A program made the position numbers and the translations under genes. Source: a virus (lineage: Duplodnaviria > Heunggongvirae > Uroviricota > Caudoviricetes). From it: a stretch of 14,915 bases of DNA. The notes under the pieces are model-generated. The model did no database searches. It had not been told where the DNA came from and saw only the letters and a program-made list of their open reading frames with translations. Below are positions 1 to 13,587 of this stretch, piece by piece. Numbering within the stretch: the stretch's first letter is position 1; every line of letters starts with the position of its first letter. Where the stretch lies: the IMG/VR virus record IMGVR_UViG_2537562091_000005; one strand, 5' to 3'.

Positions 1-1236
1 CTACGATAACCGCGCATTCAACATGGCTATCTGTTCGTCGTTCATGTCATCAATCCACATACCGTAAATTTCATACACCATCTGCGCAGTTTCATGCCCC
101 ATTTGGCTGGCTATAAATGCCGGGTTCGCTCCTACCGTCAACAGCCAGCAGGCAAAAGTATGCCGCGTATGGTACGGATTACGGCGGCGAATACCAGCAC
201 GTTTTACTGCTGCATTCCACCTTGCCCCCAAACTGCTTACCGAGTAATAAGGTTTTTGTTTTCCGTTACACACCCTGGGCATGAAAACAAAATGCAGTTT
301 TTGCTTTTCGGTTCTGCCGTACTCCCGATGATAAAAGGTGATTTCGCTTTTGCGATGATGCCCGGTCAGTTTGTATTGCTCCTTCAGTGCTTCAAGAGCA
401 GGCTGCAGTAGTGTTACTGTTCGGATCCCGGCATTTGTTTTTGGGGGACCGAACATATCAAGTATCGTCAGGTTTCTTCTGACATTCACTATTCCCTTTT
501 CGAGATCCACATCCTCCCACGCCAGAGCTGCCAGTTCCCCGTGACGAAGTCCTGAGTAAACGGCAAATTTCCACAAGTTCTGGCTCTGTCCTTTTTCACT
601 TTCCATTAATGCATTGAATTCTGTTTTAGATAACGGATCAGGCTTTATTCTGTTTCGCTGTAATTTTTTTACTCCTTCAAATGGTTTGGTTGATATAAAT
701 CCCGACTGATACGCAAAACGCAACAGCGAACAGAGCAGGGCGATATAGTTATCAACTGTGCGCACGGTTCTTCCTTTTTTGTTGGATCTTGGATTATCCA
801 GGTAAAGCGTTTCTCCATGCAGCAGTTCATTCCGGTAGTTTAAGATATCGCTATAACGAATATGTGATATCGGGGTACTTTCACAAATTATTATTCTGAG
901 TGTTTTTAATTGTGATTTCGTTTTCTTCATTGTGTTTGTTGTTAACTCTGTCTCTTTAATTTTTGTCCAGATATCACAAAGCTCTCCGAACGTTTTTATG
1001 ACTCTCGTTGTCACCATTTTTGCCCCAGTGCTGGACTGGGGAAAACGTCTTAAATACTCAAATTCACCGGAGTTTATTTCATGAACTATCAGCGCTCTTA
1101 AATTTCCGGCCTTTTTAATATTACTGTTTGTAATCTCCCAGCCTTTTAATGTTTCCCGACATCGTTTTCCTCGAAACATGAACCAGATGCGAATGTATCT
1201 ACCTCTAATCTCGACACCTGTTGGTAATTTAGACAT
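1..1236 (-). CDS. intR: Tyrosine-type site-specific integrase (lambdoid, Rac IntR-like), 411 aa
   Basis: Complete minus-strand ORF (ATG at 1236..1234, stop at 3..1). N-terminus MSKLPTGVEIRGRYIRIWF and C-terminal R..H..R..Y catalytic region (HTRHTFACWLL) fit phage integrases; recognised from memory as Rac IntR. Low-GC composition. Start lies 1 nt downstream of the xis stop (coupled int-xis pair). Confidence 0.9.
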   Translation of the reverse strand: MSKLPTGVEIRGRYIRIWFMFRGKRCRETLKGWEITNSNIKKAGNLRALIVHEINSGEFEYLRRFPQSSTGAKMVTTRVIKTFGELCDIWTKIKETELTTNTMKKTKSQLKTLRIIICESTPISHIRYSDILNYRNELLHGETLYLDNPRSNKKGRTVRTVDNYIALLCSLLRFAYQSGFISTKPFEGVKKLQRNRIKPDPLSKTEFNALMESEKGQSQNLWKFAVYSGLRHGELAALAWEDVDLEKGIVNVRRNLTILDMFGPPKTNAGIRTVTLLQPALEALKEQYKLTGHHRKSEITFYHREYGRTEKQKLHFVFMPRVCNGKQKPYYSVSSLGARWNAAVKRAGIRRRNPYHTRHTFACWLLTVGANPAFIASQMGHETAQMVYEIYGMWIDDMNDEQIAMLNARLS

Positions 1237-1237
1237 A

Positions 1238-1453
1238 TCATGAGTCTTTGATAAACTGATTTATCTTTGGATAGTTGTACCAGATAATCCCTCGTTTGCT
1301 GTCTGGCTTACCTAAAGGAGATACTCGTTTGAAGTGGAAGCCCTCCACCCAACAGTTCTGGCGGTATGCTTCAATTTGTCTGGCCCCCAGACCAGTGCGA
1401 AGCATCAGGCCGTATTCAACCATCCACTCTTCATTAAAGATTACTTGTGCCAT
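1238..1453 (-). CDS. xisR: Excisionase-like protein (XisR/YdaQ-like), 71 aa from the ATG with a Shine-Dalgarno (SD); ORF track extends to 1477
   Basis: Small ORF directly upstream of int on the same strand. The second in-frame ATG ([10 protein letters not shown]...) is preceded by GAGGTG with a 5-nt spacer, so I prefer 1453 as the start; the upstream ATG at 1477 has no SD. Position and size match an excisionase. Function is inferred from synteny and memory. Confidence 0.65.
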
Positions 1454-1531
1454 CGCATCACCTCTGGCAGGCGCCAATGTTAGACTGAAATTGACGCCCG
1501 ATGTTGATTATTCATAATCAGCTATGAAGTT

Positions 1532-1741
1532 TTAATTTGAATACAATGCAATTCTCGAGGACTGAAGTTTCTCGCAATTAAAATTTATCAGTTTTACTTT
1601 CTGCTCTCTGGAAACGCCTGCTTCTTTTTTACCTGAGAGCATTTTTTCGCATTCTGATTTCGTTAGTTTAGATTTTGAATATCTTGTCCAGTTAGTAGGA
1701 GTGCCACCTTCCTTTTCAATAGTGGCGGTAATTTTATACAT
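1532..1741 (-). CDS. ydaC: Small prophage protein (YdaC-like, 69 aa), function unknown
   Basis: Minus-strand ORF; the preferred start (MYKITATIEKEGG...) has GGAGG 5 nt upstream, and the longer 93-aa version starts without an SD. The int-xis-ydaC order matches the Rac left arm as I remember it. The symbol rests on synteny, not verified homology. Confidence 0.5.
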   Translation of the reverse strand: MYKITATIEKEGGTPTNWTRYSKSKLTKSECEKMLSGKKEAGVSREQKVKLINFNCEKLQSSRIALYSN

Positions 1742-1995
1742 GAACACCTCCATTATTATTTCCAGTGGTTCGTTTATTCCATCTTTCGAGTGCTTCTTTT
1801 TCACTTCCACCATAACCGGTTCGGGATTCGCATCCGTTACCCTGGAACGCCGTGCATTACTGGCGGCGCAGGAAGCGTTAAGTACGGCAATTGATGCGCA
1901 TGATGATGCAGTCCAAGCCGTTTACCGGAAAGCGCATTTCAGCGGCGGCGGTTCTCCTAGCGATTCTGTCGTAGTGCATTGATTGAAATTAATCG

Positions 1996-2017
1996 TACCG
2001 AACTGTTTTGTTCGGTA
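1996..2017. promoter_or_regulatory. Inverted repeat TACCGAAC-N6-GTTCGGTA upstream of the ydaW-like gene (operator or weak terminator candidate)
   Basis: Perfect 8-bp arms (1996..2003 and 2010..2017) with a 6-nt loop, seen directly. No clean U-run on either strand, so an operator or RNA structure is more likely than an intrinsic terminator. A TTGAAA -35-like hexamer lies at 1984..1989. Confidence 0.3.
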
Positions 2018-2027
2018 TCAGTTAAAT

Positions 2028-2445
2028 GTAACGCTGCGAGCGTTACAAGGTGAAAACAAATGGCTTCAAACTGGATAAAGCTCGAAGTTATTACGCCGGA
2101 TAAGCCGGAAATATTCAGGCTTGCTGAGATTCTGAATATTGATCCAGATGCCGCATTAGGGAAAGTCATTCGCTTCTGGGCATGGGCGGATCAACAAATG
2201 ATAGACGGTAACGCAGAGTGTAACGCTCGCGGCGTTACAAAAAGTGCAATAGATCGCATCACTTTTATGGCTGGTTTTGCTGATGCGTTAATTCAGGTTG
2301 GATGGCTGGTCGAAACTAATGGTGTGTTGTCGCTTCCTAACTTTGAGCGCCATAACGGGAAAAGCTCTAAAAAACGGGCGGTTACAAACGAGAGAGTAAC
2401 AAAAATACGAGAACTGAAACGAAAAGGTAACGCTGCCAGCGTTAC
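2028..2445. repeat. Dispersed family of 19-bp perfect palindromes GTAACGCT-N-AGCGTTAC, each followed by an A-run
   Basis: Seen directly: 2028..2046 GTAACGCTGCGAGCGTTAC; 2220..2238 GTAACGCTCGCGGCGTTAC (extra half-site GTAACGC at 2209..2215); 2427..2445 GTAACGCTGCCAGCGTTAC; degenerate copy GTTAC-N10-GTAAC at 2381..2400. Copy 1 ends 1 nt upstream of the SD of the ydaW-like gene (2047..2053); the others lie inside its coding sequence in the same codon phase (encoding N-A-x-x-V-T-K). Confidence 0.7.
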
Positions 2446-2563
2446 AAAAACGGATCAAAAAGCGTTATCTGCATCATCGTCTGCCTGTCATGGGCTGTTA
2501 ATCATTACCGTGATAACGCCACCGCCTACAAAGAGCAGCGCGACAAAAATGCCAGAGAACTGA
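2060..2563 (+). CDS. Phage protein, YdaW-like N-terminal fragment; last ~30 codons are out-of-frame Rz sequence (pseudogene-like fusion)
   Basis: ATG at 2060 with SD AAGGTGA 6 nt upstream. The N-terminal ~130 aa ([46 protein letters not shown]...) look like a real phage protein, possibly DNA-binding or replication-associated. From about 2461 the ORF reads through the Rz N-terminal region in another frame (ending ...[19 protein letters not shown]), which indicates a deletion fusion. Family assignment is uncertain. Confidence 0.5.
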
Positions 2564-2895
2564 AGCTGGCGAACGCGGCAATTACTGACATGCAGATGCG
2601 TCAGCGTGATGTTGCTGCGCTCGATGCAAAATACACGAAGGAGTTAGCTGATGCGAAAGCTGAAAATGATGCTCTGCGTGATGATGTTGCCGCTGGTCGT
2701 CGTCGGTTGCACATCAAAGCAGTCTGTCAGTCAGTGCGTGAAGCCACCACCGCCTCCGGCGTGGATAATGCAGCCTCCCCCCGACTGGCAGACACCGCTG
2801 AACGGGATTATTTCACCCTCCGGGAACGACTGGTAATGATGCAGGCCCAACTTGAAGGTGCTCAGCAATACATAACCGAACAGTGTTTAAAGTAA
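2464..2895 (+). pseudogene. rzpR: Rz-like inner-membrane spanin gene, 5'-truncated (start and first ~12 codons lost)
   Basis: The frame open from 2431 translates to ...[102 protein letters not shown]..., which I recognise as lambda Rz from its TM segment onward. There is no start codon upstream of the TM segment; the first ATG (2590) gives a 101-aa product lacking the membrane anchor. Confidence 0.8.
2651..2836 (+). CDS. rzoR: Rz1-like outer-membrane lipoprotein spanin (o-spanin), 61 aa, nested in the +1 frame of Rz
   Basis: [24 protein letters not shown]... has a signal peptide with lipobox LVVVGC and a proline-rich mature part ([15 protein letters not shown]), typical of Rz1. SD AAGGAG lies 7 nt upstream of the ATG. 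The embedded arrangement inside Rz is the classical spanin architecture. Confidence 0.85.
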
Positions 2896-2981
2896 AATCT
2901 TAACTACAATATGATTCATTTTGATGATTGTTTCATAAGGAACAGTGAAGTAAGATCTAAGAGGAGTTAAATTTTATACAG

Positions 2982-3015
2982 TATAATCATAATATTGCAG
3001 CAAGGTGGTTATAAT
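2982..3015 (+). promoter_or_regulatory. Putative promoter -10 elements upstream of trkG (TATAAT at 2982..2987 and 3010..3015)
   Basis: AT-rich intergenic region with two perfect TATAAT hexamers; no good -35 match. Pattern-based only. Confidence 0.2.
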
Positions 3016-3032
3016 TGAAAGAATATTTAGAT

Positions 3033-4490
3033 ATGAATACATCTCATGTAAGAGTTGTTACTCATATGTGTGGGTTCCTGGTTTGGCTCTATAGTCTTTC
3101 AATGTTGCCACCAATGGTTGTAGCATTGTTTTATAAAGAAAAAAGCCTGTTCGTTTTCTTTATAACTTTCGTTATATTTTTTTGTATTGGTGGCGGAGCG
3201 TGGTATACAACTAAGAAATCTGGCATTCAATTACGTACCCGTGATGGGTTTATTATAATTGTAATGTTTTGGATTTTGTTTTCTGTTATTAGTGCATTCC
3301 CTTTATGGATTGACTCAGAACTTAATTTAACGTTCATTGATGCTCTGTTTGAAGGGGTTTCTGGAATAACAACAACAGGAGCAACTGTAATTGATGATGT
3401 TAGTTCATTACCTCGGGCATATTTGTACTATCGGTCACAGTTAAATTTTATAGGTGGTTTAGGAGTTATTGTTCTGGCGGTTGCTGTATTGCCATTATTG
3501 GGTATTGGTGGTGCAAAGCTTTATCAGTCAGAAATGCCGGGGCCATTTAAGGATGACAAACTCACTCCCCGCCTGGCCGATACGTCACGGACACTGTGGA
3601 TAACTTATTCTTTATTAGGTATTGCTTGTATTGTCTGTTATAGACTTGCAGGAATGCCTTTGTTTGATGCTATTTGTCACGGGATTTCCACAGTTTCGCT
3701 TGGTGGTTTCTCAACTCATAGCGAGAGTATCGGATATTTTAATAACTATTTGGTTGAGCTGGTGGCTGGTTCTTTTTCCCTGCTATCGGCTTTCAACTTC
3801 ACTCTTTGGTATATTGTTATTAGCAGGAAAACGATAAAACCTTTAATCAGAGATATTGAACTTCGTTTCTTTCTGTTAATAGCCTTAGGGGTGATCATTG
3901 TTACCTCTTTCCAGGTCTGGCATATAGGTATGTATGACTTGCATGGAAGTTTTATTCATTCGTTTTTTCTTGCCAGCTCCATGCTCACTGATAATGGTTT
4001 AGCTACGCAGGATTATGCAAGCTGGCCCACGCACACGATAGTGTTTTTGCTGTTGTCAAGTTTCTTTGGGGGATGTATAGGTTCAACTTGTGGTGGAATT
4101 AAGTCACTTCGATTTCTTATACTTTTCAAACAAAGCAAACACGAGATAAATCAGCTTTCTCATCCCAGAGCGTTGTTGAGTGTAAATGTAGGAGGGAAGA
4201 TAGTTACAGATCGTGTAATGAGGTCTGTATGGAGTTTCTTTTTTCTTTATACTCTCTTCACGGTGTTTTTTATACTGGTGTTAAATGGTATGGGATATGA
4301 TTTTCTTACATCATTTGCAACAGTGGCTGCATGTATTAATAATATGGGATTAGGTTTTGGGGCTACTGCATCGTCATTCGGAGTGCTTAATGACATTGCA
4401 AAATATTTAATGTGCATAGCTATGATTCTTGGTCGCCTTGAAATTTATCCTGTTATTATATTGTTTTCAGGTTTTTTTTGGCGCTCCTAA
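3033..4490 (+). CDS. trkG: Trk-system potassium uptake membrane protein TrkG (prophage-encoded moron), 485 aa
   Basis: Polytopic membrane protein (MNTSHVRVVTHMCGFLVWLYSLSMLPPMVVALFYKEK...) with repeated glycine-rich selectivity-filter-like motifs typical of TrkH/TrkG; recognised as Rac TrkG. Markedly AT-rich relative to neighbours. Start ambiguity: ATG 3033 has no SD, whereas in-frame TTG 3015 is preceded by AAGGTGG at a 6-nt spacing. Confidence 0.9.
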   Translation: MNTSHVRVVTHMCGFLVWLYSLSMLPPMVVALFYKEKSLFVFFITFVIFFCIGGGAWYTTKKSGIQLRTRDGFIIIVMFWILFSVISAFPLWIDSELNLTFIDALFEGVSGITTTGATVIDDVSSLPRAYLYYRSQLNFIGGLGVIVLAVAVLPLLGIGGAKLYQSEMPGPFKDDKLTPRLADTSRTLWITYSLLGIACIVCYRLAGMPLFDAICHGISTVSLGGFSTHSESIGYFNNYLVELVAGSFSLLSAFNFTLWYIVISRKTIKPLIRDIELRFFLLIALGVIIVTSFQVWHIGMYDLHGSFIHSFFLASSMLTDNGLATQDYASWPTHTIVFLLLSSFFGGCIGSTCGGIKSLRFLILFKQSKHEINQLSHPRALLSVNVGGKIVTDRVMRSVWSFFFLYTLFTVFFILVLNGMGYDFLTSFATVAACINNMGLGFGATASSFGVLNDIAKYLMCIAMILGRLEIYPVIILFSGFFWRS

Positions 4491-4576
4491 TATATGGCTG
4501 ATTTATAATTGTGAGTTTAATATTATGTTGACTCACTCATTGATCCAATACCTAACTTTACCAGCAACACCTCCGC

Positions 4577-4610
4577 CCCCAGTAGCACTGGCTGCTGGGG
4601 TGCGTTTTAT
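4577..4610 (+). terminator. Possible intrinsic terminator downstream of trkG
   Basis: CCCCAG (4577..4582) pairs with CTGGGG (4595..4600) around a 12-nt loop, followed by TGCGTTTTATT. The long loop makes it a weak candidate. Confidence 0.3.
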
Positions 4611-4627
4611 TCATAAAGCAAGGATGT

Positions 4628-5419
4628 ATGAGCGAGAAATTAAAGATAGTCTATCGCCCATTACAAGAATTGTCACCGTATGCGCACAACGCCAGGACGC
4701 ACAGCCCTGAGCAGGTGGCACAACTGGTAGAAAGTATTAAGCAATTCGGCTGGACTAATCCGGTGCTGATTGACGAAAAGGGCGAAATTATTGCGGGTCA
4801 CGGTCGTGTTATGGCGGCTGAAATGCTCAAAATGGATTCTGTTCCGGTCATTGTTCTGTCTGGCCTGACGGATGAGCAGAAAAAGGCGTACCGCCTGGCA
4901 GATAATCGCCTGCCGATGAATGCTGGCTGGGATGAAGATCTGTTGCGGATGGAGCTGTCGGACCTAATCAATGCTGATTTTGATGTCTCCCTGACAGGCT
5001 TCATCCCGACAGAAATTGATGAACTGTTGACGGATGTTTTGCCCGGTACAGGAAATGAGGAGGAGCCGTATACGACGAAAATTGATACGCCTGTTTATGA
5101 GCCGTCGGGCGGTAAACCGGATATCAGTGAACTGTACGACGATACGAAAACGCAGGAGCTGATCAGCCGGATACGTTCGGCTTCCCTTGAGCCTGATATT
5201 GAGAAATTCCTCCTGTGTGCGGCAGAACGTCACACGGTGTTTAATTTCAGCAGAATTGCGGACTATTACGCTCACGCCCCCGCTGAAATTCAGTGTTTTT
5301 TCGAGGAGTCGGCGCTGGTGATCATTGATTATCAGCAGGCTATTGAAAATGGATTTGTCCGGATGACGCAGCGCATGGTGGAGATCATGCATGGTGGTGA
5401 GGAGGAGGAATATGCGTGA
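4628..5419 (+). CDS. ParB-like nuclease N-terminal domain protein (ParB/Srx superfamily), 263 aa
   Basis: N-terminal region IVYRPLQELSPYAHNARTHSPEQVAQLVESIKQFGWTNPVLIDEKGEIIAGHGRVMAA fits the ParB N-terminal fold (conserved NAR..S and GHGR motifs), followed by an acidic C-terminal extension. AGGA lies 3 nt upstream of the ATG. No methyltransferase motifs are visible. Confidence 0.7.
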   Translation: MSEKLKIVYRPLQELSPYAHNARTHSPEQVAQLVESIKQFGWTNPVLIDEKGEIIAGHGRVMAAEMLKMDSVPVIVLSGLTDEQKKAYRLADNRLPMNAGWDEDLLRMELSDLINADFDVSLTGFIPTEIDELLTDVLPGTGNEEEPYTTKIDTPVYEPSGGKPDISELYDDTKTQELISRIRSASLEPDIEKFLLCAAERHTVFNFSRIADYYAHAPAEIQCFFEESALVIIDYQQAIENGFVRMTQRMVEIMHGGEEEEYA

Positions 5420-5498
5420 TGATTTTTGCGCCTTTATTCTGACTCACGGGCGACCGGACAAAGTTCTGACTTACCGAACGTTGCGTCGTGCTGGCTAG
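5412..5498 (+). pseudogene. 28-codon gene stub (MRDDFCAFILTHGRPDKVLTYRTLRRAG) with strong SD, likely remnant 5' end of a deleted or frameshifted gene
   Basis: ATG at 5412 is preceded by GGAGGAGGAA and overlaps the ParB-like stop (5417..5419), a coupled arrangement. It stops after 28 codons at TAG 5496..5498. The long capsid ORF is in a different frame. Confidence 0.3.
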
Positions 5499-7926: not shown

Positions 7927-8360
7927 CGTTTACTGAAATCAGAAATACGGTTATTTCCAGAATGACGGCACAGACGATTATTGATGGAAAAGACGTATTG
8001 TATCCGAACGCGCCAACGTTCGATCCTTCCGGTAAGTTAATCTGGGCGCGGTTAAGTAATATTCCCGGGCAGGCTGGAGTTAATGAAATTGGCGCGGGGC
8101 CGATTGTTTATCGCACGGGGATAATCATTATTCAGTTATTTGTCCCCGCAGGTTCTGGTTCAAAACTCATTACTGAGACAGCCGATAAATTGCGGGAACT
8201 GTTTGAGTTTCAGGATGACGATCGTCTCAGTTACCAGGCTGTTTCCTCAACCAGCCAGACTACTGCGGACAGAATAACAGCACATAATTTACGCATAATT
8301 ACCTCTCGCTTTTCTGCAATAAAAAAGGCGCCATTTCTGGCGCCCGTATCTGGGTTATAA
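7923..8360 (+). CDS. Putative tail terminator / neck protein, 145 aa; 3' end runs through an opposite-strand terminator (possibly chimeric C-terminus)
   Basis: ATGA overlap with the upstream gene. The last ~15 codons (…SAIKKAPFLAPVSGL) are encoded by the hairpin that serves as terminator of the convergent J fragment, so the C-terminus may derive from a rearrangement joint. Confidence 0.45.
   Translation: MTFTEIRNTVISRMTAQTIIDGKDVLYPNAPTFDPSGKLIWARLSNIPGQAGVNEIGAGPIVYRTGIIIIQLFVPAGSGSKLITETADKLRELFEFQDDDRLSYQAVSSTSQTTADRITAHNLRIITSRFSAIKKAPFLAPVSGL
8320..8344 (-). terminator. Intrinsic terminator for the minus-strand J fragment
   Basis: On the minus strand: GGCGCCA, GAAA loop, TGGCGCC, then TTTTTTATT, beginning about 20 nt past the J stop (stem at plus 8327..8333 and 8338..8344; A-run 8321..8326). 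Confidence 0.6.
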
Positions 8361-8363
8361 AAT

Positions 8364-10925
8364 TCAGCTAATCGTGATGCCTGCAGTGGCTTTCTTCATC
8401 ACAACAACCAGCAAATCGCTGATACTTGCTGTGGGATACCAACCATTTACCCACCATGCTGATACAGAAAACTCCAGTGTCATTACGCCACTGCCTGCTG
8501 GCATATCAATAACACCCGTGTAAATCAGAGTATTATCCAGAGCCGTTCGGTTATAAATTTCAGCCCCGTTTTTCTTCACTATCAGGCGGCATGACGAATA
8601 AGTATCGCTATTCTCCCGCTCATGTCTGGCACCGCTGAAAGCCACCGCTGGAATAACAATTTGCCGGTCAAACGGCTGATCGTCATAAACCCTGACGGTA
8701 ATGGTCCCTGATGGCCACCGCTCCGGTGCACGGGAGTCCCGGGGGAAAGCTTTGCCCACTGTTTTAACGAGATCGCCTTCAATCTGGTTCGCGGACAGTT
8801 TTCCCAGAACCCGACAGTTCTCGTTAATCGTGACGTTGTTGAGCGTCCCGGAGTTCGCATTCACGCTACCGCTGATATCGGCATTTTTCGCCGTCAGCCG
8901 CCCGTCCGGTGTCAGGGAAAATGCCGGAGGATTACCGCCGCTGGTAATGGTCGGAGCCGTCAGGCGTTTCAGGAACACGTCGTTCATGAATATCTGATCG
9001 CCCTGACCAACAAACATTGGTCTTGTGTTGCCATTAGACGGATCAATAAACGCGATACGGTTAGCGGCAACCAGGAACTGGCTCAGTTTGCCTTCCTCCG
9101 TATCCTCCATGCTGAGGCCAAGCCCCGCGACATAATGCCTGCCGTCTTCGGTCTGCTCAATTTTGACGCCCCACATGGCATTCCATTTATCGTTGGCGTC
9201 TTTCCACTCTTTCGAAAACTCCTCCAGTTTGCTGGCGTTATCCTCCGTCAGCTCGACTTTTTCCAGCAGCTCATTGCCGAGATGGGATTCGGTTATCTGG
9301 CCTTTGAAAAAATCCAGGTAACCTTCCGCATCATCGCTCGCCCGACCAACAGCCTCCACGAATGCCGATTTGCCGACGGTGTTCACACTGCGGATATAAA
9401 AGTAATAATCACGGCCCGGTTTGATATTGGTACTGGCGGCTATCCAGTACAGCGCCGTGCCAAGATAGCGGGCTGTGGTTTCAACCTGTCTGATATCAGC
9501 AACCCGCTTTTCCGAGAACCAGAACTCAAACTGTACCGTCGGATCATAAACGGCAAGATACGGCGTGGCGGTTATCTGAAAATAGCCCGGCGTCAGCTCA
9601 ATCCGCGACGGTGCTGCCGGTGCGGCAATCCGGAACGATACCGATGCCGGATCGCCCTGCTGTCCCCACGCATTTGCCGCCCGGACTGTCAGCCTGTAGT
9701 TCCCCAGCGCCAGCTGCCTGAAGCGGTATGTGTTTTCCGTCGTCCTGGCCGTGCTGACCAGCCGCTCACTGCCGTCGTCCGCTGCCACGGTCAGGCGAAG
9801 CATAAAGCTCACCCCCTTCACCACCTTCGGCGTGTCCCAGCGCGCCAGCACCTGATATTCCCCGCTGTCTGCGGTGACTTCGGCAGTCAGGTGCTGCACT
9901 GCTGGCGGCGTGACACCATTCACCGTGCCGCTCTGGTCGCCGTCAAAGTGCGCCCCGTTATCCACGATGGCTTCTTTTTCCGGTACATGCTGCACGGCGG
10001 TGATGGCATACGTGCCGTCGTCGTTCTCACGGATACTCACGCAGCGGAACAGGCGCTGGCGCAGCGTCGGCAGCTTCAGCCCCCACACGCTGTATCCGGC
10101 AACGCCGTCAGGAACACGACTCACTTTTACCTTCACGCCGTCGGTGACGGACTGGACCTCCACGCTGACCGGATTGCCACTTCCGTCAACCAGGCTTATC
10201 AGCGTGGTACCGGAGGATGGCAGCGTGATTTCACGGTCGAGCGTCAGCGTCCGGGTCTGGCTGTTCACCGCCAGCACGCGCCCGCCGATGCTGATACCCG
10301 CATAGTCATCATCGCAGATTTCAATGACATCCCCCGGTACATGGCGAAGCCCTTCTGCGCCCACGCTGAAGTCCACGGTCTGCGTTTCCAGCAGCTCCGT
10401 TTTAATCAGCCACAGCCCGGCGCGGTGTGCCTGCCCCCGACTGGTACAGCCAAAGGCATCCATCTTCGTGACGTTACGGCCGTAACGGGCAATGGCCTGC
10501 GTATCCTCCACGAGCTCTGTCGCCGTCTCCCAGCCGTTATCCGGGTCAATCCAGTTCACCTCAACGGCATTATGGCGGTCCTTCAGGGCGCTGAAGCTGT
10601 AGCGGAACGGCGCGCCATCATCCGGCATCACCACATTACTGCGGTTATAGGTCCACACCTTATCCGACGGTCGGTCCTGCACGAACGTCAGCGTCTGCCC
10701 GTTCCATACCGGCATACAGCGCATCGCCGAGCAGAAATCACTGAGCACATCCCACGCCTTGCGCTGTGTGGTCAGCCAGGCATTACAGGTAATGCGCGGC
10801 TCCGTGCCGCCAAAGCCGTCCGGCACTGACTGGTCGCAGTACTGGCCGATGACATACAGCGCCCATTTGTCCACATCCGCCGCACCAAGACGTTTCCCCA
10901 TGCCGTAGCGCGGGTGGGTCAGCAT
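8364..10925 (-). pseudogene. Lambda J-like host-specificity / tail-tip protein, N-terminally truncated and inverted relative to lom and stf
   Basis: From [50 protein letters not shown]... to the C-terminus the translation closely matches lambda gpJ as I recall it, including FN3-like repeats and the C-terminal receptor-binding region. About 280 N-terminal residues of a ~1130-aa J are absent. The ORF-track extension to 11030 (GTG start, 35 non-J codons) is antisense to lom and has no SD. Confidence 0.8.
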
Positions 10926-11171
10926 ATGGCTTACAGCCGAGTGTCGACCTTCTCCGGGGATTATCTCCGCGTAACTGACAACAAGGGGAAAACGCACGAT
11001 GTGCTGACCGGAAGTGATGACGGTCGCCACAGCAATACGTCTCTGGCGTGGGGGGCTGGCGTGCAGTTTAACCCGACCGAATCCGTGGCCATTGATATTG
11101 CTTATGAAGGCTCCGGCAGTGGTGACTGGCGCACTGACGGTTTCATCGTGGGTGTCGGTTATAAATTCTGA
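10926..11171 (+). pseudogene. lom (Ail/Lom family outer-membrane protein) 3' fragment, last ~81 codons only
   Basis: C-terminus ...[43 protein letters not shown] matches the Lom/Ail beta-barrel C-terminus with terminal Phe. The signal peptide and N-terminal two-thirds are missing. Confidence 0.8.
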
Positions 11172-11197
11172 TTAGCCAGGTAACACAGTGTTATGAC

Positions 11198-11226
11198 AGC
11201 CCGCCGGTTCAGGCGGGCTTTTTTGT
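11198..11226 (+). terminator. Intrinsic terminator downstream of the lom fragment
   Basis: AGCCCGCC (11198..11205), GGTTCA loop, GGCGGGCT (11212..11219), then TTTTTTG. Confidence 0.65.
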
Positions 11227-11235
11227 GGAGTGGAT

Positions 11236-13587
11236 ATGGCAGCAGTAAAAATCTCAGGTGTGCTGAAAGATGGTGCGGGAAAACCAATACAGAACTGCAC
11301 TATTCAACTGAAGGCAAAGCGTAACAGCACCACGGTACTGGTGAACACGGTGGCCTCTGAAAATCCGGATGAAGCCGGGCGTTACAGCATGGATGTTGAG
11401 TATGGCCAGTACAGTGTCATCCTGCTGGTTGAAGGTTTTCCGCCTTCACATGCCGGGACCATTACCGTCTATGAAGGTTCCAGACCAGGTACGCTGAATG
11501 ATTTTCTTGGTGCCATGACGGAGGATGATGCCCGTCCGGAGGCACTGCGCCGTTTTGAACTGATGGTGGAAGAAGCAGCACGCAACGCTGAAGCCGCCTC
11601 TCAGAGCGCAGCGGCGGCAAAGAAATCCGAAACTGCAGCGGCATCATCGAAGAACGCGGCGAAAACCTCAGAAACGAATGCAGCTAATAGTGCACAGGCG
11701 GCAGCGACCTCACAGACTGCATCAGCAAACTCCGCGACAGCAGCCAAAAAATCAGAAACCAACGCGAAAAACAGCGAGACAGCCGCAAAGACGAGCGAAA
11801 CCAACGCAAAGTCCAGCCAGACGGCAGCGAAAACCAGCGAAACGAATGCCAAAGCCAGTGAAACTGCGGCAAAAAACAGCCAGGTTGCGGCAGCCGGTTC
11901 TGCGACTTCAGCAGCTGGATCAGCAACTGCTGCGGCTAACAGCCAGAAAGCTGCGAAGACGAGTGAAACTAACGCAAAGTCCAGCCAGACGGCAGCGAAG
12001 ACCAGCGAAACGAATGCCAAAGCCAGCGAAACTGCGGCGAAAAACAGCCAGGATGCAGCAGCCCAAAGCGAGAGTGCCGCAGCTGGTTCTGCAAGTGCGG
12101 CGGCTTCTTCTGCCACTGCATCAGCCAACAGTCAAAAAGCAGCAAAAACCAGTGAAACCAACACAAAGGCGAGCGAGACTGCGGCGACTAACTCGGCGAA
12201 AGCATCCGCTGCAAGCCAGATGGCTGCAAAAGCAAGTGAAGACGCAGCCAGAGAGTATGCAAGCCAGGCAGCAGAGCCGTATAAATATGTCTTACAGCCA
12301 CTGCCTGATGTGTGGATACCGTTTAATGACTCGATGGATATGATTACAGGATTTGGCCCGGGATATAAAAAAATAACAGTGCGCGATGATGTGGTCACTA
12401 TACCATCCGACAAAATTGTCCCGTTTTCCCGCGCGAGTTCCGCGACCTATATCAATAAGTCCGGCGCTCTTACCATTGCAGAAATTAATGAGCCACGTTT
12501 TGAAAAAGAAGGGCTGTTAATTGAAGGGCAGAGAACAAATTACTTCACAAACTCAAACGCTCCGGAATTGTGGAATAAAAATCCAGGCCTGAAGATAAGC
12601 GAGACAAAAACCGATTCCAGGGGTTTTAAATATGCAACGTTTACCCCAGAAAAATATTTAGATAGTTCTGGCTCATATGGAATTATATCAGGGGCAGCAG
12701 CAAATAAGATAGCGGTAGTCAAAAATGATGCAGTTACAATATCCTTTAGAGCAAAAGGGGATAATGTAAGATTTGCGGCTAGATTTGATAAAGGGGATTC
12801 GCCAGTTGCTGTAGCTGCCATTTTTATTGATAGCGCCACACTAGATACATTCACGTCTGGAGCAGATGCGTCTAATATTGCTGTGAAAAATGTTGTTCGT
12901 GACGGTGAGTGGGTTGCTGTAGAGGCTGTTTATAAAGTAACAGACGACTCTACATATATTAACGGCGCCATTCTGATGTCAAACAAACTGGGTGCTAATT
13001 TTGATAAGACTAGTTTTATGGATGTAACCACCCCTCAAATAGAGCTAGGTTCTTGCTTATCATCATTTATTGTCACTCCAGGTGTTCCTGCGACAAGGGC
13101 GAGTGATATGGTTATTTTTTCAACCAGAAATAACATAAGTTCTGTCCCTTTAAGCTGTCTTGTTGAAATACATAAAAATTGGGACTCTACGCCAAATCAG
13201 GCCCCACGAATTTTAACCACTATTGGCGTGGCGACTAATGATGAACAACTGGTATTGGCTTTCAGGACGCCTACAAGTCCGGATGTAGAACCTTTACCTT
13301 ATGTTCAGTTTGGAGTGAGATCTGCATATCTTAGTCCATCTGTGAAGGCCGGGCGCAAAATGATTGCTGGTTTTGTCTGTAATAGCTCGACTGAATTTCG
13401 TTGCTGTTGTAATGGTTACCTGTCACCTGTTCAGACTTCGTCATGGAAGAATACCGGAGCTGCACATGAAATACGTATTGGGGGAACTTCTGCTGGAGGA
13501 GAACGTCACTTGTTTGGTCACGTTCGTAACCTGAGAATATGGCATAAAGAATTAACTGATGCGCAAATGGGGGAGAGTATTAAATGA
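11236..13587 (+). CDS. Side tail fibre protein, mosaic: lambda-Stf-like N-terminus, Ala/Ser/Thr tandem-repeat shaft, divergent C-terminal region with possible lectin-like (LamG/concanavalin-type) end
   Basis: ATG 11236 with GGAG 5 nt upstream (ORF track starts at in-frame GTG 11230). The N-terminal ~115 aa (MAAVKISGVLKDGAGKPIQNCTIQLKAKRNSTTVLVNTV...) match the lambda Stf N-terminus from memory. Residues ~120-330 are KTSETNAK-type repeats. The C-terminal ~450 aa are low-GC and end ...GERHLFGHVRNLRIWHKELTDAQMGESIK, reminiscent of LamG-like domain termini; no His-rich GxHxH motifs. Confidence 0.8.
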   Translation: MAAVKISGVLKDGAGKPIQNCTIQLKAKRNSTTVLVNTVASENPDEAGRYSMDVEYGQYSVILLVEGFPPSHAGTITVYEGSRPGTLNDFLGAMTEDDARPEALRRFELMVEEAARNAEAASQSAAAAKKSETAAASSKNAAKTSETNAANSAQAAATSQTASANSATAAKKSETNAKNSETAAKTSETNAKSSQTAAKTSETNAKASETAAKNSQVAAAGSATSAAGSATAAANSQKAAKTSETNAKSSQTAAKTSETNAKASETAAKNSQDAAAQSESAAAGSASAAASSATASANSQKAAKTSETNTKASETAATNSAKASAASQMAAKASEDAAREYASQAAEPYKYVLQPLPDVWIPFNDSMDMITGFGPGYKKITVRDDVVTIPSDKIVPFSRASSATYINKSGALTIAEINEPRFEKEGLLIEGQRTNYFTNSNAPELWNKNPGLKISETKTDSRGFKYATFTPEKYLDSSGSYGIISGAAANKIAVVKNDAVTISFRAKGDNVRFAARFDKGDSPVAVAAIFIDSATLDTFTSGADASNIAVKNVVRDGEWVAVEAVYKVTDDSTYINGAILMSNKLGANFDKTSFMDVTTPQIELGSCLSSFIVTPGVPATRASDMVIFSTRNNISSVPLSCLVEIHKNWDSTPNQAPRILTTIGVATNDEQLVLAFRTPTSPDVEPLPYVQFGVRSAYLSPSVKAGRKMIAGFVCNSSTEFRCCCNGYLSPVQTSSWKNTGAAHEIRIGGTSAGGERHLFGHVRNLRIWHKELTDAQMGESIK
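11590..12240 (+). repeat. In-frame tandem repeats inside stf (11-aa sub-repeats; about 100-nt near-identical copies at a 168-nt period)
   Basis: The peptide AAKTSETNAKSSQTAAKTSETNAKASETAAKNSQ occurs twice, 56 codons apart (about 11786..11885 and 11954..12053). The two copies differ by six synonymous transitions. A third partial copy follows (KAAKTSETNTKASETAA). Confidence 0.75.

Follow-up and report, generated by a model that had tools for sequence, protein, structure and literature searches.

The Rac prophage is known to be highly variable, with more than half of the strains having lost half of the prophage, and ydaS was never found without racR in 154 genomes (PMC5700373). In K-12, deletion of racR was possible only if ydaS and the intergenic region shared by the two genes went with it, and it was not possible in a background in which kilR alone was deleted (PMC5700373). 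The full gene order is kept in K-12 Rac, in the near-complete prophage of strain ST2747 and in phage vB_EcoS-666R9 (ON470614.1; 666R9 from here on). It runs from int, xis, DUF1187, ralR, recT, recE, racC, ydaE, kil, sieB and the repressor through a cro-like gene, ydaT/cII, the O-type initiator, a DnaC-like gene and YdaW and, further to the right, to Q, the lysis genes, Rz, trkG and ParB.

We analysed a window of 14,915 bp (the whole stretch of IMG/VR record IMGVR_UViG_2537562091_000005), which corresponds to about 1,171,309–1,186,223 of GL872249.1. Like K-12 Rac, it is integrated at ttcA, and it shares with it the int/xis/rcbA/RalA/ralR-tail segment (99.8%) and the Rz'-trkG-ynaK segment (99.4%). 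K-12 Rac is itself a deletion derivative, with a ydaW'/Rz' fusion located about 13 nt from one of the three crossovers of the window, which are referred to here as J1, J2 and J3; the fusion lies near J2. Unlike the window, K-12 Rac keeps the early region (7,122 bp missing in the window) in addition to ydaU, ydaV and ydaW', has another ydaT allele (93.5% at the nucleotide level) and a YdaU with an unrelated N-terminal domain, lacks the capsid-to-tail-terminator genes that the window keeps, and carries an IS5 in lomR. In the ST2747 prophage and 666R9 the gene order is collinear with all segments that survive in the window, and their ydaT tail, spacer and 5' half of the O gene are 99.5–100% identical to it; as they carry 7.9-kb, 11.9-kb and 7.0-kb stretches that are missing in the window, they served as the undeleted reference. 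We consider it very likely that the interval at 1742–2059 is a scar left by an internal deletion, the prophage being a decayed Rac-type lambdoid element of E. coli that had integrated at ttcA. The features at the left end of the window, up to and including the first crossover and the gene remnant behind it, are the following:

1–1236, minus strand: intR, intact tyrosine integrase of 411 aa (ORF; 99.8% nucleotide identity to K-12 Rac)
1238–1453, minus strand: xisR (ydaQ), intact excisionase (Pfam DUF1233, putative excisionase, E=6.2e-21; identical to K-12 XisR)
1532–1741, minus strand: rcbA/ydaC ORF of 69 codons (Pfam DUF1187, E=1.2e-38; identical to K-12 RcbA)
1557–1735, plus strand: RalA antitoxin sRNA, full length (Rfam RF02694, model positions 1–179 of 179)
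1734–1840, minus strand: ralR 3' remnant, codons 31–64 and stop (100% identical to K-12 RalR residues 31–64)
1838–1840, unstranded: J1 crossover, at which a 3-bp microhomology (TAC) joins ralR (minus-strand gene) to ydaT (plus-strand gene)
1839–1982, plus strand: 3' remnant of ydaT (the CII equivalent), codons 94–140 and stop (protein comparison with ST2747 and K-12 YdaT)

The integrase differs from K-12 IntR at one residue (V368 versus A) and has no internal stops. In the source contig intR adjoins ttcA, and in all three contigs carrying the junctions (see below) the gene upstream of intR encodes a PF01171 (ATP_bind_3) protein, i.e. ttcA, and dbpA and zntB come before it, in agreement with K-12. 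RalA scored 225.1 bits against RF02694 (gathering score 170; E=8.5e-55) and was the sole match in an Rfam E-value search of positions 1–5000, with no OOP-like or other RNA at the hairpin described below for 1996–2017. RalA is encoded on the strand opposite to ydaC as formerly annotated and does not extend beyond that annotation; this DNA was reported to act through RalA, and a YdaC protein was not found (PMC4041452). As only residues 31–64 of ralR remain in the window, the start codon, the first 30 codons and the promoter being gone, the toxin ORF is not intact and RalA is left as an orphan antitoxin.

The rcbA/ydaC ORF starts at 1741 on the minus strand and the next plus-strand gene with an ATG at 2060, which leaves a gap of 318 bp (1742–2059). 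The original prediction, made from the letters of the sequence, had put it at about 320 bp and had rightly read it as a deletion scar in a Rac-type prophage, at which the restriction-alleviation (here the 5' part of ralR), recET, kil, sieB and repressor genes were lost. Megablast of the interval against 5,426 complete E. coli genomes matched 1742–1843 to ralR and 1830–2059 to the 3' end of ydaT and the adjoining spacer, with ralR and 'ydaT' being the RefSeq features beneath the two matches; none of these genomes covered 80% of the interval at one place. Piecewise alignment gave a three-piece mosaic with sharp breakpoints, and a concatenated ST2747 reference yielded the same picture: 1–1843 matched K-12 Rac from intR through the 3' part of ralR (99.8%), 1830–2467 matched the Rac-type prophage of ST2747 (99.5%), and 2464–4881 matched the Rz remnant, trkG and ynaK of K-12 (99.4%).

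Base by base, the window follows the left parent of J1 up to 1840 and the right parent from 1838 onwards, with K-12 and 666R9 being free of mismatches up to 1840, and the flanks of the two parents are imperfectly alike (CCGTTACACT versus TCGATACCCT). Comparison with K-12 Rac, which the original prediction had suggested for locating the endpoints, placed them in ralR and ydaT and identified ydaT as the source of the fragment at 1838–1982. J1 links about codon 30 of ralR, a leftward gene, to codon 94 of ydaT, a rightward gene. The stretch missing at J1 is 7,122 bp relative to K-12 and 7,862 bp relative to ST2747; the predicted loss of roughly 9 kb agrees with the ydaC-to-ydaW distance in K-12 (9,011 bp) but exceeds what is missing at this junction. 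The lost genes and sites are the 5' end of ralR with its promoter, recT, recE, racC, ydaE, kilR, sieB, ydaF, a small phage ORF, racR, the racR-ydaS control region, ydaS and the first 93 codons (two-thirds) of ydaT. With the early region (recET, kilR, sieB, racR, ydaS) absent at J1, the element is a deletion derivative and not an intact Rac member. Moreover, J1 is not a module boundary, since the genes on its two sides are both truncated and run on opposite strands (ralR codons 31–64 and ydaT codons 94–140).

A start-less open frame had been reported at 1838–1982 and taken for the 3' tail of a deleted gene. The frame is present, with an in-register extent of 1839–1982 and with ALLAAQEALSTAIDAHDDAVQAVYRKAHFSGGGSPSDSVVVH as its last residues before the stop, and it is indeed such a tail, covering YdaT residues 94–140: all 47 residues are those of ST2747 YdaT, and the identity to K-12 YdaT is 93.6%. 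On the other hand, only the ydaT-derived part of the frame lacks a start of its own, as no stop interrupts the frame upstream, where it crosses ralR/rcbA sequence in antisense and reaches an ATG (1740) and a GTG (1701). The result is a chimeric ORF of 80–93 aa, which was called by the gene caller in the source assembly. No hit to the 47-aa tail was obtained in Pfam or NCBIfam; the family scans being empty, this tail and the initiator fragment described below were named by direct comparison with intact alleles. The YdaT homologue of CP-933P has an N-terminal DNA-binding domain followed by a long C-terminal helix, which forms the four-helix bundle that makes the tetramer (PMC9986795). By this layout, the deletion of residues 1–93 would have removed the N-terminal HTH-containing POU DNA-binding domain, and the surviving tail probably corresponds, by analogy, to the C-terminal tetramerisation helix of the CP-933P protein.

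Between J1 and J2 we identified a 638-bp island of early-right DNA, made up of the ydaT tail, the ydaT-O spacer and codons 1–136 of an O-type initiator gene. The original prediction had the whole early region absent and the integration module placed directly against a late-region remnant. Both statements had to be corrected, as the island survives and stands between the two, and late DNA (Rz) begins only at J2. Apart from the ydaT tail, the island holds the following features:

1996–2017, unstranded: inverted repeat (hairpin) in the native ydaT-O spacer, with 8-bp arms and a 6-nt loop
2027–2047, unstranded: palindrome 1 of 3, TGTAACGC-N5-GCGTTACA, just upstream of the O-type gene
2060–2467, plus strand: 5' remnant of a lambda-O-type replication initiator gene in the ydaU position, codons 1–136 of 262 (identity to intact relatives)
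2219–2239, unstranded: palindrome 2 of 3, inside the O-type gene
2427–2446, unstranded: palindrome 3 of 3, inside the O-type gene

Past J2, the initiator ORF enters Rz out of frame, with its stop at 2563. Its residues 1–136 are identical to those of a 262-aa ST2747 protein in the ydaU position (WP_001396581.1), and nucleotides 1983–2467 show 100% identity to part of a 'DNA replication protein O' entry in three Escherichia phage genomes of about 38 kb, e.g. 666R9. In ST2747 and 666R9 the gene is located between the cII equivalent and the DnaC-like genes, the next gene being ydaV/DnaC-like. K-12 YdaU has the C-terminal half in common with the ST2747 initiator but an unrelated N-terminal half; residues 137–262, with the shared C-terminal domain, were deleted at J2. 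Neither Pfam nor NCBIfam detected a domain in the remaining fragment. The right-hand gene had been predicted to be ydaW-like, an assignment that we rejected for the ORF at 2060–2563: its best blastp match to an intact DUF1627 protein had E=0.13 over 17 aa, the product of the K-12 ydaW pseudogene was not matched, and there was no Pfam hit.

The inverted repeat at 1996–2017, also noticed in the original prediction, proved real. Its arms are TACCGAAC at 1996–2003 and GTTCGGTA at 2010–2017, and its predicted fold has −13.9 kcal/mol (z=−4.05). It was, however, rejected as a part of the deletion scar, being native ydaT-O spacer sequence that is 100% identical in an intact phage. The same identity was found in both 666R9 and TUM17668, and the left arm is broken in the 93.8% allele of phage Rac MN652886. 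A role as a terminator was considered too, and the scan gave a terminator-like call for the minus strand only. Judged from these alignments, it is neither deletion-related nor strongly conserved. As for the palindromes, perfect copies of GTAACGC-N5-GCGTTAC lie at 2028, 2220 and 2427, with a spacing of about 200 bp (3 matches versus 0.06 expected; none of 200 shuffles reached 3). In the diverged allele the arms are invariant and nearby positions vary. No similar palindromes were found in K-12 ydaU, which fits its unrelated N-terminal domain and is no proof. It is plausible that these palindromes are binding sites for the initiator or for another dimeric protein.

The second crossover and the segment to its right comprise:

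2464–2467, unstranded: J2 crossover, at which O codon 136 meets nt 34 of Rz through a microhomology of 4 bp (GTTA)
2464–2895, plus strand: Rz (rzpR-type) remnant without its first 33 nt (Pfam Phage_lysis, E=1.5e-46; 99.4% to K-12)
2651–2836: embedded Rz1/rzoR ORF inside the Rz remnant
3033–4490, plus strand: trkG potassium transporter gene, an intact prophage moron (one residue differs from K-12 TrkG)

Relative to ST2747, 11,891 bp are missing at J2, from the remainder of the initiator gene through the DnaC-like ydaV, DUF1627/ydaW, DUF977, a methyltransferase gene, nin-type genes, holin and endolysin into Rz; in the matching stretch of 666R9 an antiterminator Q gene is annotated too. The replication genes are thus mostly gone, as had been predicted, but they were removed by this separate junction, which the prediction had not noticed. 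As in Rac-type prophages, trkG is found directly downstream of Rz/Rz1. The ORFs of 80–93 aa and 167 aa that run across the joints are junction artefacts, not genes.

Several Rac deletions have their right end inside Rz: at about nt 21–22 in K-12 (ydaW'/Rz), at nt 34–37 in this window (O'/Rz), at nt 37/38 in AST205 (recT'/Rz) and at about nt 76 in TUM17668, with a different left partner in each of the four fusions. Perhaps the first ~75 nt of Rz, upstream of trkG, form a recurrent right endpoint of independent Rac deletions, through either a hotspot or selection; we regard this as doubtful, as the clustering is a post-hoc observation in a small sample of four fusions. Under selection, the lysis cassette would be destroyed while something in the Rz/Rz1-trkG segment is kept. 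Of all the observations made here, the clustered endpoints at the 5' end of Rz are the only item perhaps worth a population-scale survey.

A third internal deletion was identified further to the right:

5496–5497, unstranded: J3 crossover (TA)

The stretch missing at J3 (6,977 bp relative to ST2747) comprises the small and large terminase genes, the portal and minor head protein genes and most of the scaffold-region genes. J3 was found in none of the complete E. coli genomes, the nearest of which carry another deletion in the same interval, and no parental form that has J3 and still keeps the early region turned up in a search. Homology to ST2747 stops at about 8250, and 8248–10927 is an inverted J'-lom' block whose borders are lineage-specific and occur in no complete genome.

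The microhomologies at J1, J2 and J3 are 3, 4 and 2 bp long versus a chance mean of 0.67 bp. With a uniform-base null, the joint tail probability of the three lengths comes to about 1.2e-4, while a 3-bp overlap taken alone has a chance probability of about 5%. Neither the joints nor the parental sites showed filler DNA, an IS element or a repeat of more than 4 bp. To judge from this junction anatomy, which is typical of illegitimate recombination at short homologies, replication slippage or another short-homology end-joining or break-and-join process is the most likely origin of the joints. An illegitimate joint of the RecA-independent type at TAC removed 7.1–7.9 kb from ralR to ydaT, a second joint of like kind at GTTA removed about 11.9 kb from O codon 136 into Rz, and a third at TA removed about 7 kb of head-assembly genes. 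Left behind are dead fragments, namely the ralR tail, the ydaT tail and half of the initiator gene, with the intact integrase/excisionase/RalA module on one side and the Rz'-trkG segment on the other.

Among the 5,426 complete genomes and the three junction-bearing assemblies, no assembly with J1 alone or J2 alone was found; J1 and J2 may have been formed separately, in either order, or in a single compound event. In the latter case template switching (FoSTeS/MMBIR-like) would have run from ralR to ydaT, copied 638 bp and switched again to Rz, leaving one deletion of about 20 kb with a templated patch. We hold this to be unlikely, though deserving of some weight. The 3–4 bp microhomologies at both joints, the direct orientation of the island, the absence of either junction alone from the complete genomes and the presence of both in every one of the three assemblies that have one would suit such an event. 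So would the inverted J'-lom' block with its lineage-specific borders, another complex rearrangement in the same prophage. However, missing intermediates are weak evidence where a single lineage carries the junctions (three assemblies, maybe fewer independent strains), independent single deletions are common in Rac (K-12, AST205, TUM17668), and two separate deletions require no special mechanism.

It is very improbable that the separate deletions favoured above were made by a dedicated recombination system, be it an IS-mediated adjacent deletion, a site-specific recombinase or homologous recombination (RecA/RecET) between repeats. Two observations could be taken to point that way: several Rac deletions of independent origin have right endpoints that cluster within the first ~75 nt of Rz, and the left parents of J1 and J2 both carry CGTTA-type motifs. 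Yet no remnant of an IS or a transposase lies at J1 or J2 or in their vicinity, the parental sites share no direct repeat longer than 4 bp, the crossover lacks the inverted-repeat core typical of recombinase sites, and the left endpoints differ in every variant. We also considered the octamer TCTGCATC, common to the right-hand parents of J1 and J2, as a recombination signal and rejected it, as it falls in the deleted part at J1 but in the retained part at J2.

J1, J2 and J3 were each spanned by none of the 5,426 complete E. coli genomes, and an exact-match scan for the J1 23-mer in one-genome-per-species GTDB contigs, in which strain-level variants are unrepresented, returned nothing. The 167-aa junction-spanning fusion protein was found in exactly three assemblies, namely a 2.49-Mb NCBI scaffold (GCA_000191015.1), a metagenome contig of 140 kb from ENA, and one Logan assembly. 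Each of them contains both the J1 and the J2 23-mers, located beside ttcA-intR, and matches the window with 100% identity wherever the two overlap. We give hardly any credence to an assembly artefact, i.e. a chimeric contig in which prophage sequence was collapsed or mis-joined. Prophage regions, with their many similar lambdoid modules, are prone to mis-assembly, and the junctions are missing from all the complete, mostly long-read genomes searched; but the fusion and both 23-mers are identical in three differently produced assemblies (the 140-kb contig being MEGAHIT-style), and the junctions fall in unique sequence, outside repeats, with an overlap of only 3–4 bp.

The native organisation of a distinct phage lineage, with int-xis-ydaC naturally abutting replication or late genes, was the alternative allowed for in the original prediction and can be practically dismissed: in its favour there is only the weak point that the ydaT-O segment is another allele than that of K-12, in a family with modular mosaicism, whereas the sides of J1 are truncated opposite-strand genes and not module boundaries, the same ydaT-O allele lies within a complete early region in ST2747 and 666R9, both of which, like K-12 Rac, keep the missing genes, and the adjacency was seen in 0/5,426 complete E. 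coli genomes.

Internal deletion, the preferred reading, has consequences for the element. Gone are the repressor, the cro-like and CII-like regulators, recET, kilR, sieB and most of the replication functions. The element should therefore be unable to run a lytic programme, to set immunity or to replicate, and its RecET pathway would be lost. It may still be excisable, because IntR, one residue off K-12, and XisR, identical to it, are intact; attR lies outside the window. Scanned from 1518 to 2886, the plus strand had no promoter-like site, and therefore the ydaT' and O' fragments are probably silent. The deletion was presumably tolerable because racR was lost together with ydaS and their shared control region, most of ydaT, and kilR, an argument drawn from the genetics of K-12, which is another strain. 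The window is a natural example of the rule derived from K-12, by which the Rac repressor is lost only along with the ydaS/ydaT/kilR genes that it silences. The strain should be without the RecET pathway, which would make sbcA-type suppression impossible, and Rac immunity should be absent as well. The main use of the analysis lies in annotation, where ralR', ydaT', O-type initiator' and Rz' are the correct labels.

Other derivatives, eroded independently, show how familiar this kind of event is. AST205 (recT'/Rz') and TUM17668 (O'/DUF977 and hokD-region/Rz') are, like the window, Rac prophages at the same site with internal deletions at short homologies, and the right endpoint of AST205 lies directly beside the GTTA crossover of J2. 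They differ from the window in their other left endpoints and in the genes that they retain, and J1, J2 and J3 occur in neither of them. The engineered racR deletions of K-12 (Krishnamurthi et al. 2017, PMC5700373) are similar in that the viable ones also remove ydaS and the racR-ydaS control region; unlike these laboratory constructs, the event in the window is natural, reaches leftwards to ralR and has removed kilR too. The window is thus one more eroded Rac, in which the exact junctions are rare and the kind of event is thoroughly known.

Gene callers reported two ORFs in the source assembly, of 80 aa and 167 aa, at 1740-1982 and 2060-2563, respectively. The first consists of antisense ralR/rcbA followed by the tail of ydaT, and the second of the N-terminus of the lambda-O-type initiator followed by out-of-frame Rz. 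Both ORFs are chimeric frames created by the internal deletion junctions, and neither interval warrants a gene annotation. The following features were identified around these ORFs:

1557-1735, + strand, full-length RalA antitoxin sRNA (Rfam RF02694, 225 bits)
2027-2047, 2219-2239 and 2427-2446, three perfect palindromes, TGTAACGC-N5-GCGTTACA

The toxin gene ralR has lost its promoter and first 30 codons, yet RalA is kept; thus RalA in the window is an orphan type I antitoxin. The palindromes, spaced by 192 and 207 bp, are located one upstream of the O-type initiator gene and two within its 5′ half. None of 200 shuffles yielded three such palindromes, their arms were unchanged in the 93.8% allele, and no palindromes of this type were found in the K-12 ydaU allele. 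They may serve as initiator or operator sites.

The right endpoints of the Rac deletions in K-12, the window, AST205 and TUM17668 all lie no further than ~75 nt into the Rz gene linked to trkG, at 2464-2467 in the window (J2, the junction of the O-type initiator with Rz) and at ~14250, ~8745 and ~9000 in the loci L001, L002 and L009 of the other three. The left partner is distinct in each of these four independent deletions, and the crossover of AST205 directly adjoins that of J2. Such clustering at the 5′ end of Rz, noticed post hoc in a small sample, could reflect a hotspot or selection.

Further rearrangements and the tail-fibre gene were located to the right:

5496-5497, J3, a third internal deletion with TA microhomology (6,977 bp relative to the near-complete prophage of ST2747)
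8248-10927, block inverted with respect to the sequence on either side, carrying the beginning of lom and, of a gpJ-type tail-tip gene, the 3′ 2.7 kb
10925-11588, direct join of the lom remnant to the stfR-like gene
11230-13587, stfR-like tail-fibre gene

Through J3, the terminase, portal and minor head protein genes that would lie between the ParB-like gene and the P22-type capsid gene have been lost. It was found in no complete E. coli genome, and the nearest complete genomes carry another deletion within the same interval. The inverted block meets the tail-terminator gene at one end and, at the other, the lom 3′ remnant. Genes for the tail tube, the tape measure and minor tail proteins are lacking. 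The block looks like an inversion-plus-deletion, the borders of which were found in no complete genome.

The stfR-like gene has a long internal repeat (11600-12200), rich in Ala/Ser/Thr/Lys (AAKTSETNAKSSQTAAK...), in which 11770-11895 matches 11938-12063 at ~91% in a BLAST self-comparison. In K-12, lomR is interrupted by IS5, whereas in the window the lom remnant joins the stfR-like gene with no IS5; at this join, L001 matches the window over 18587-18649 and then from 19844.
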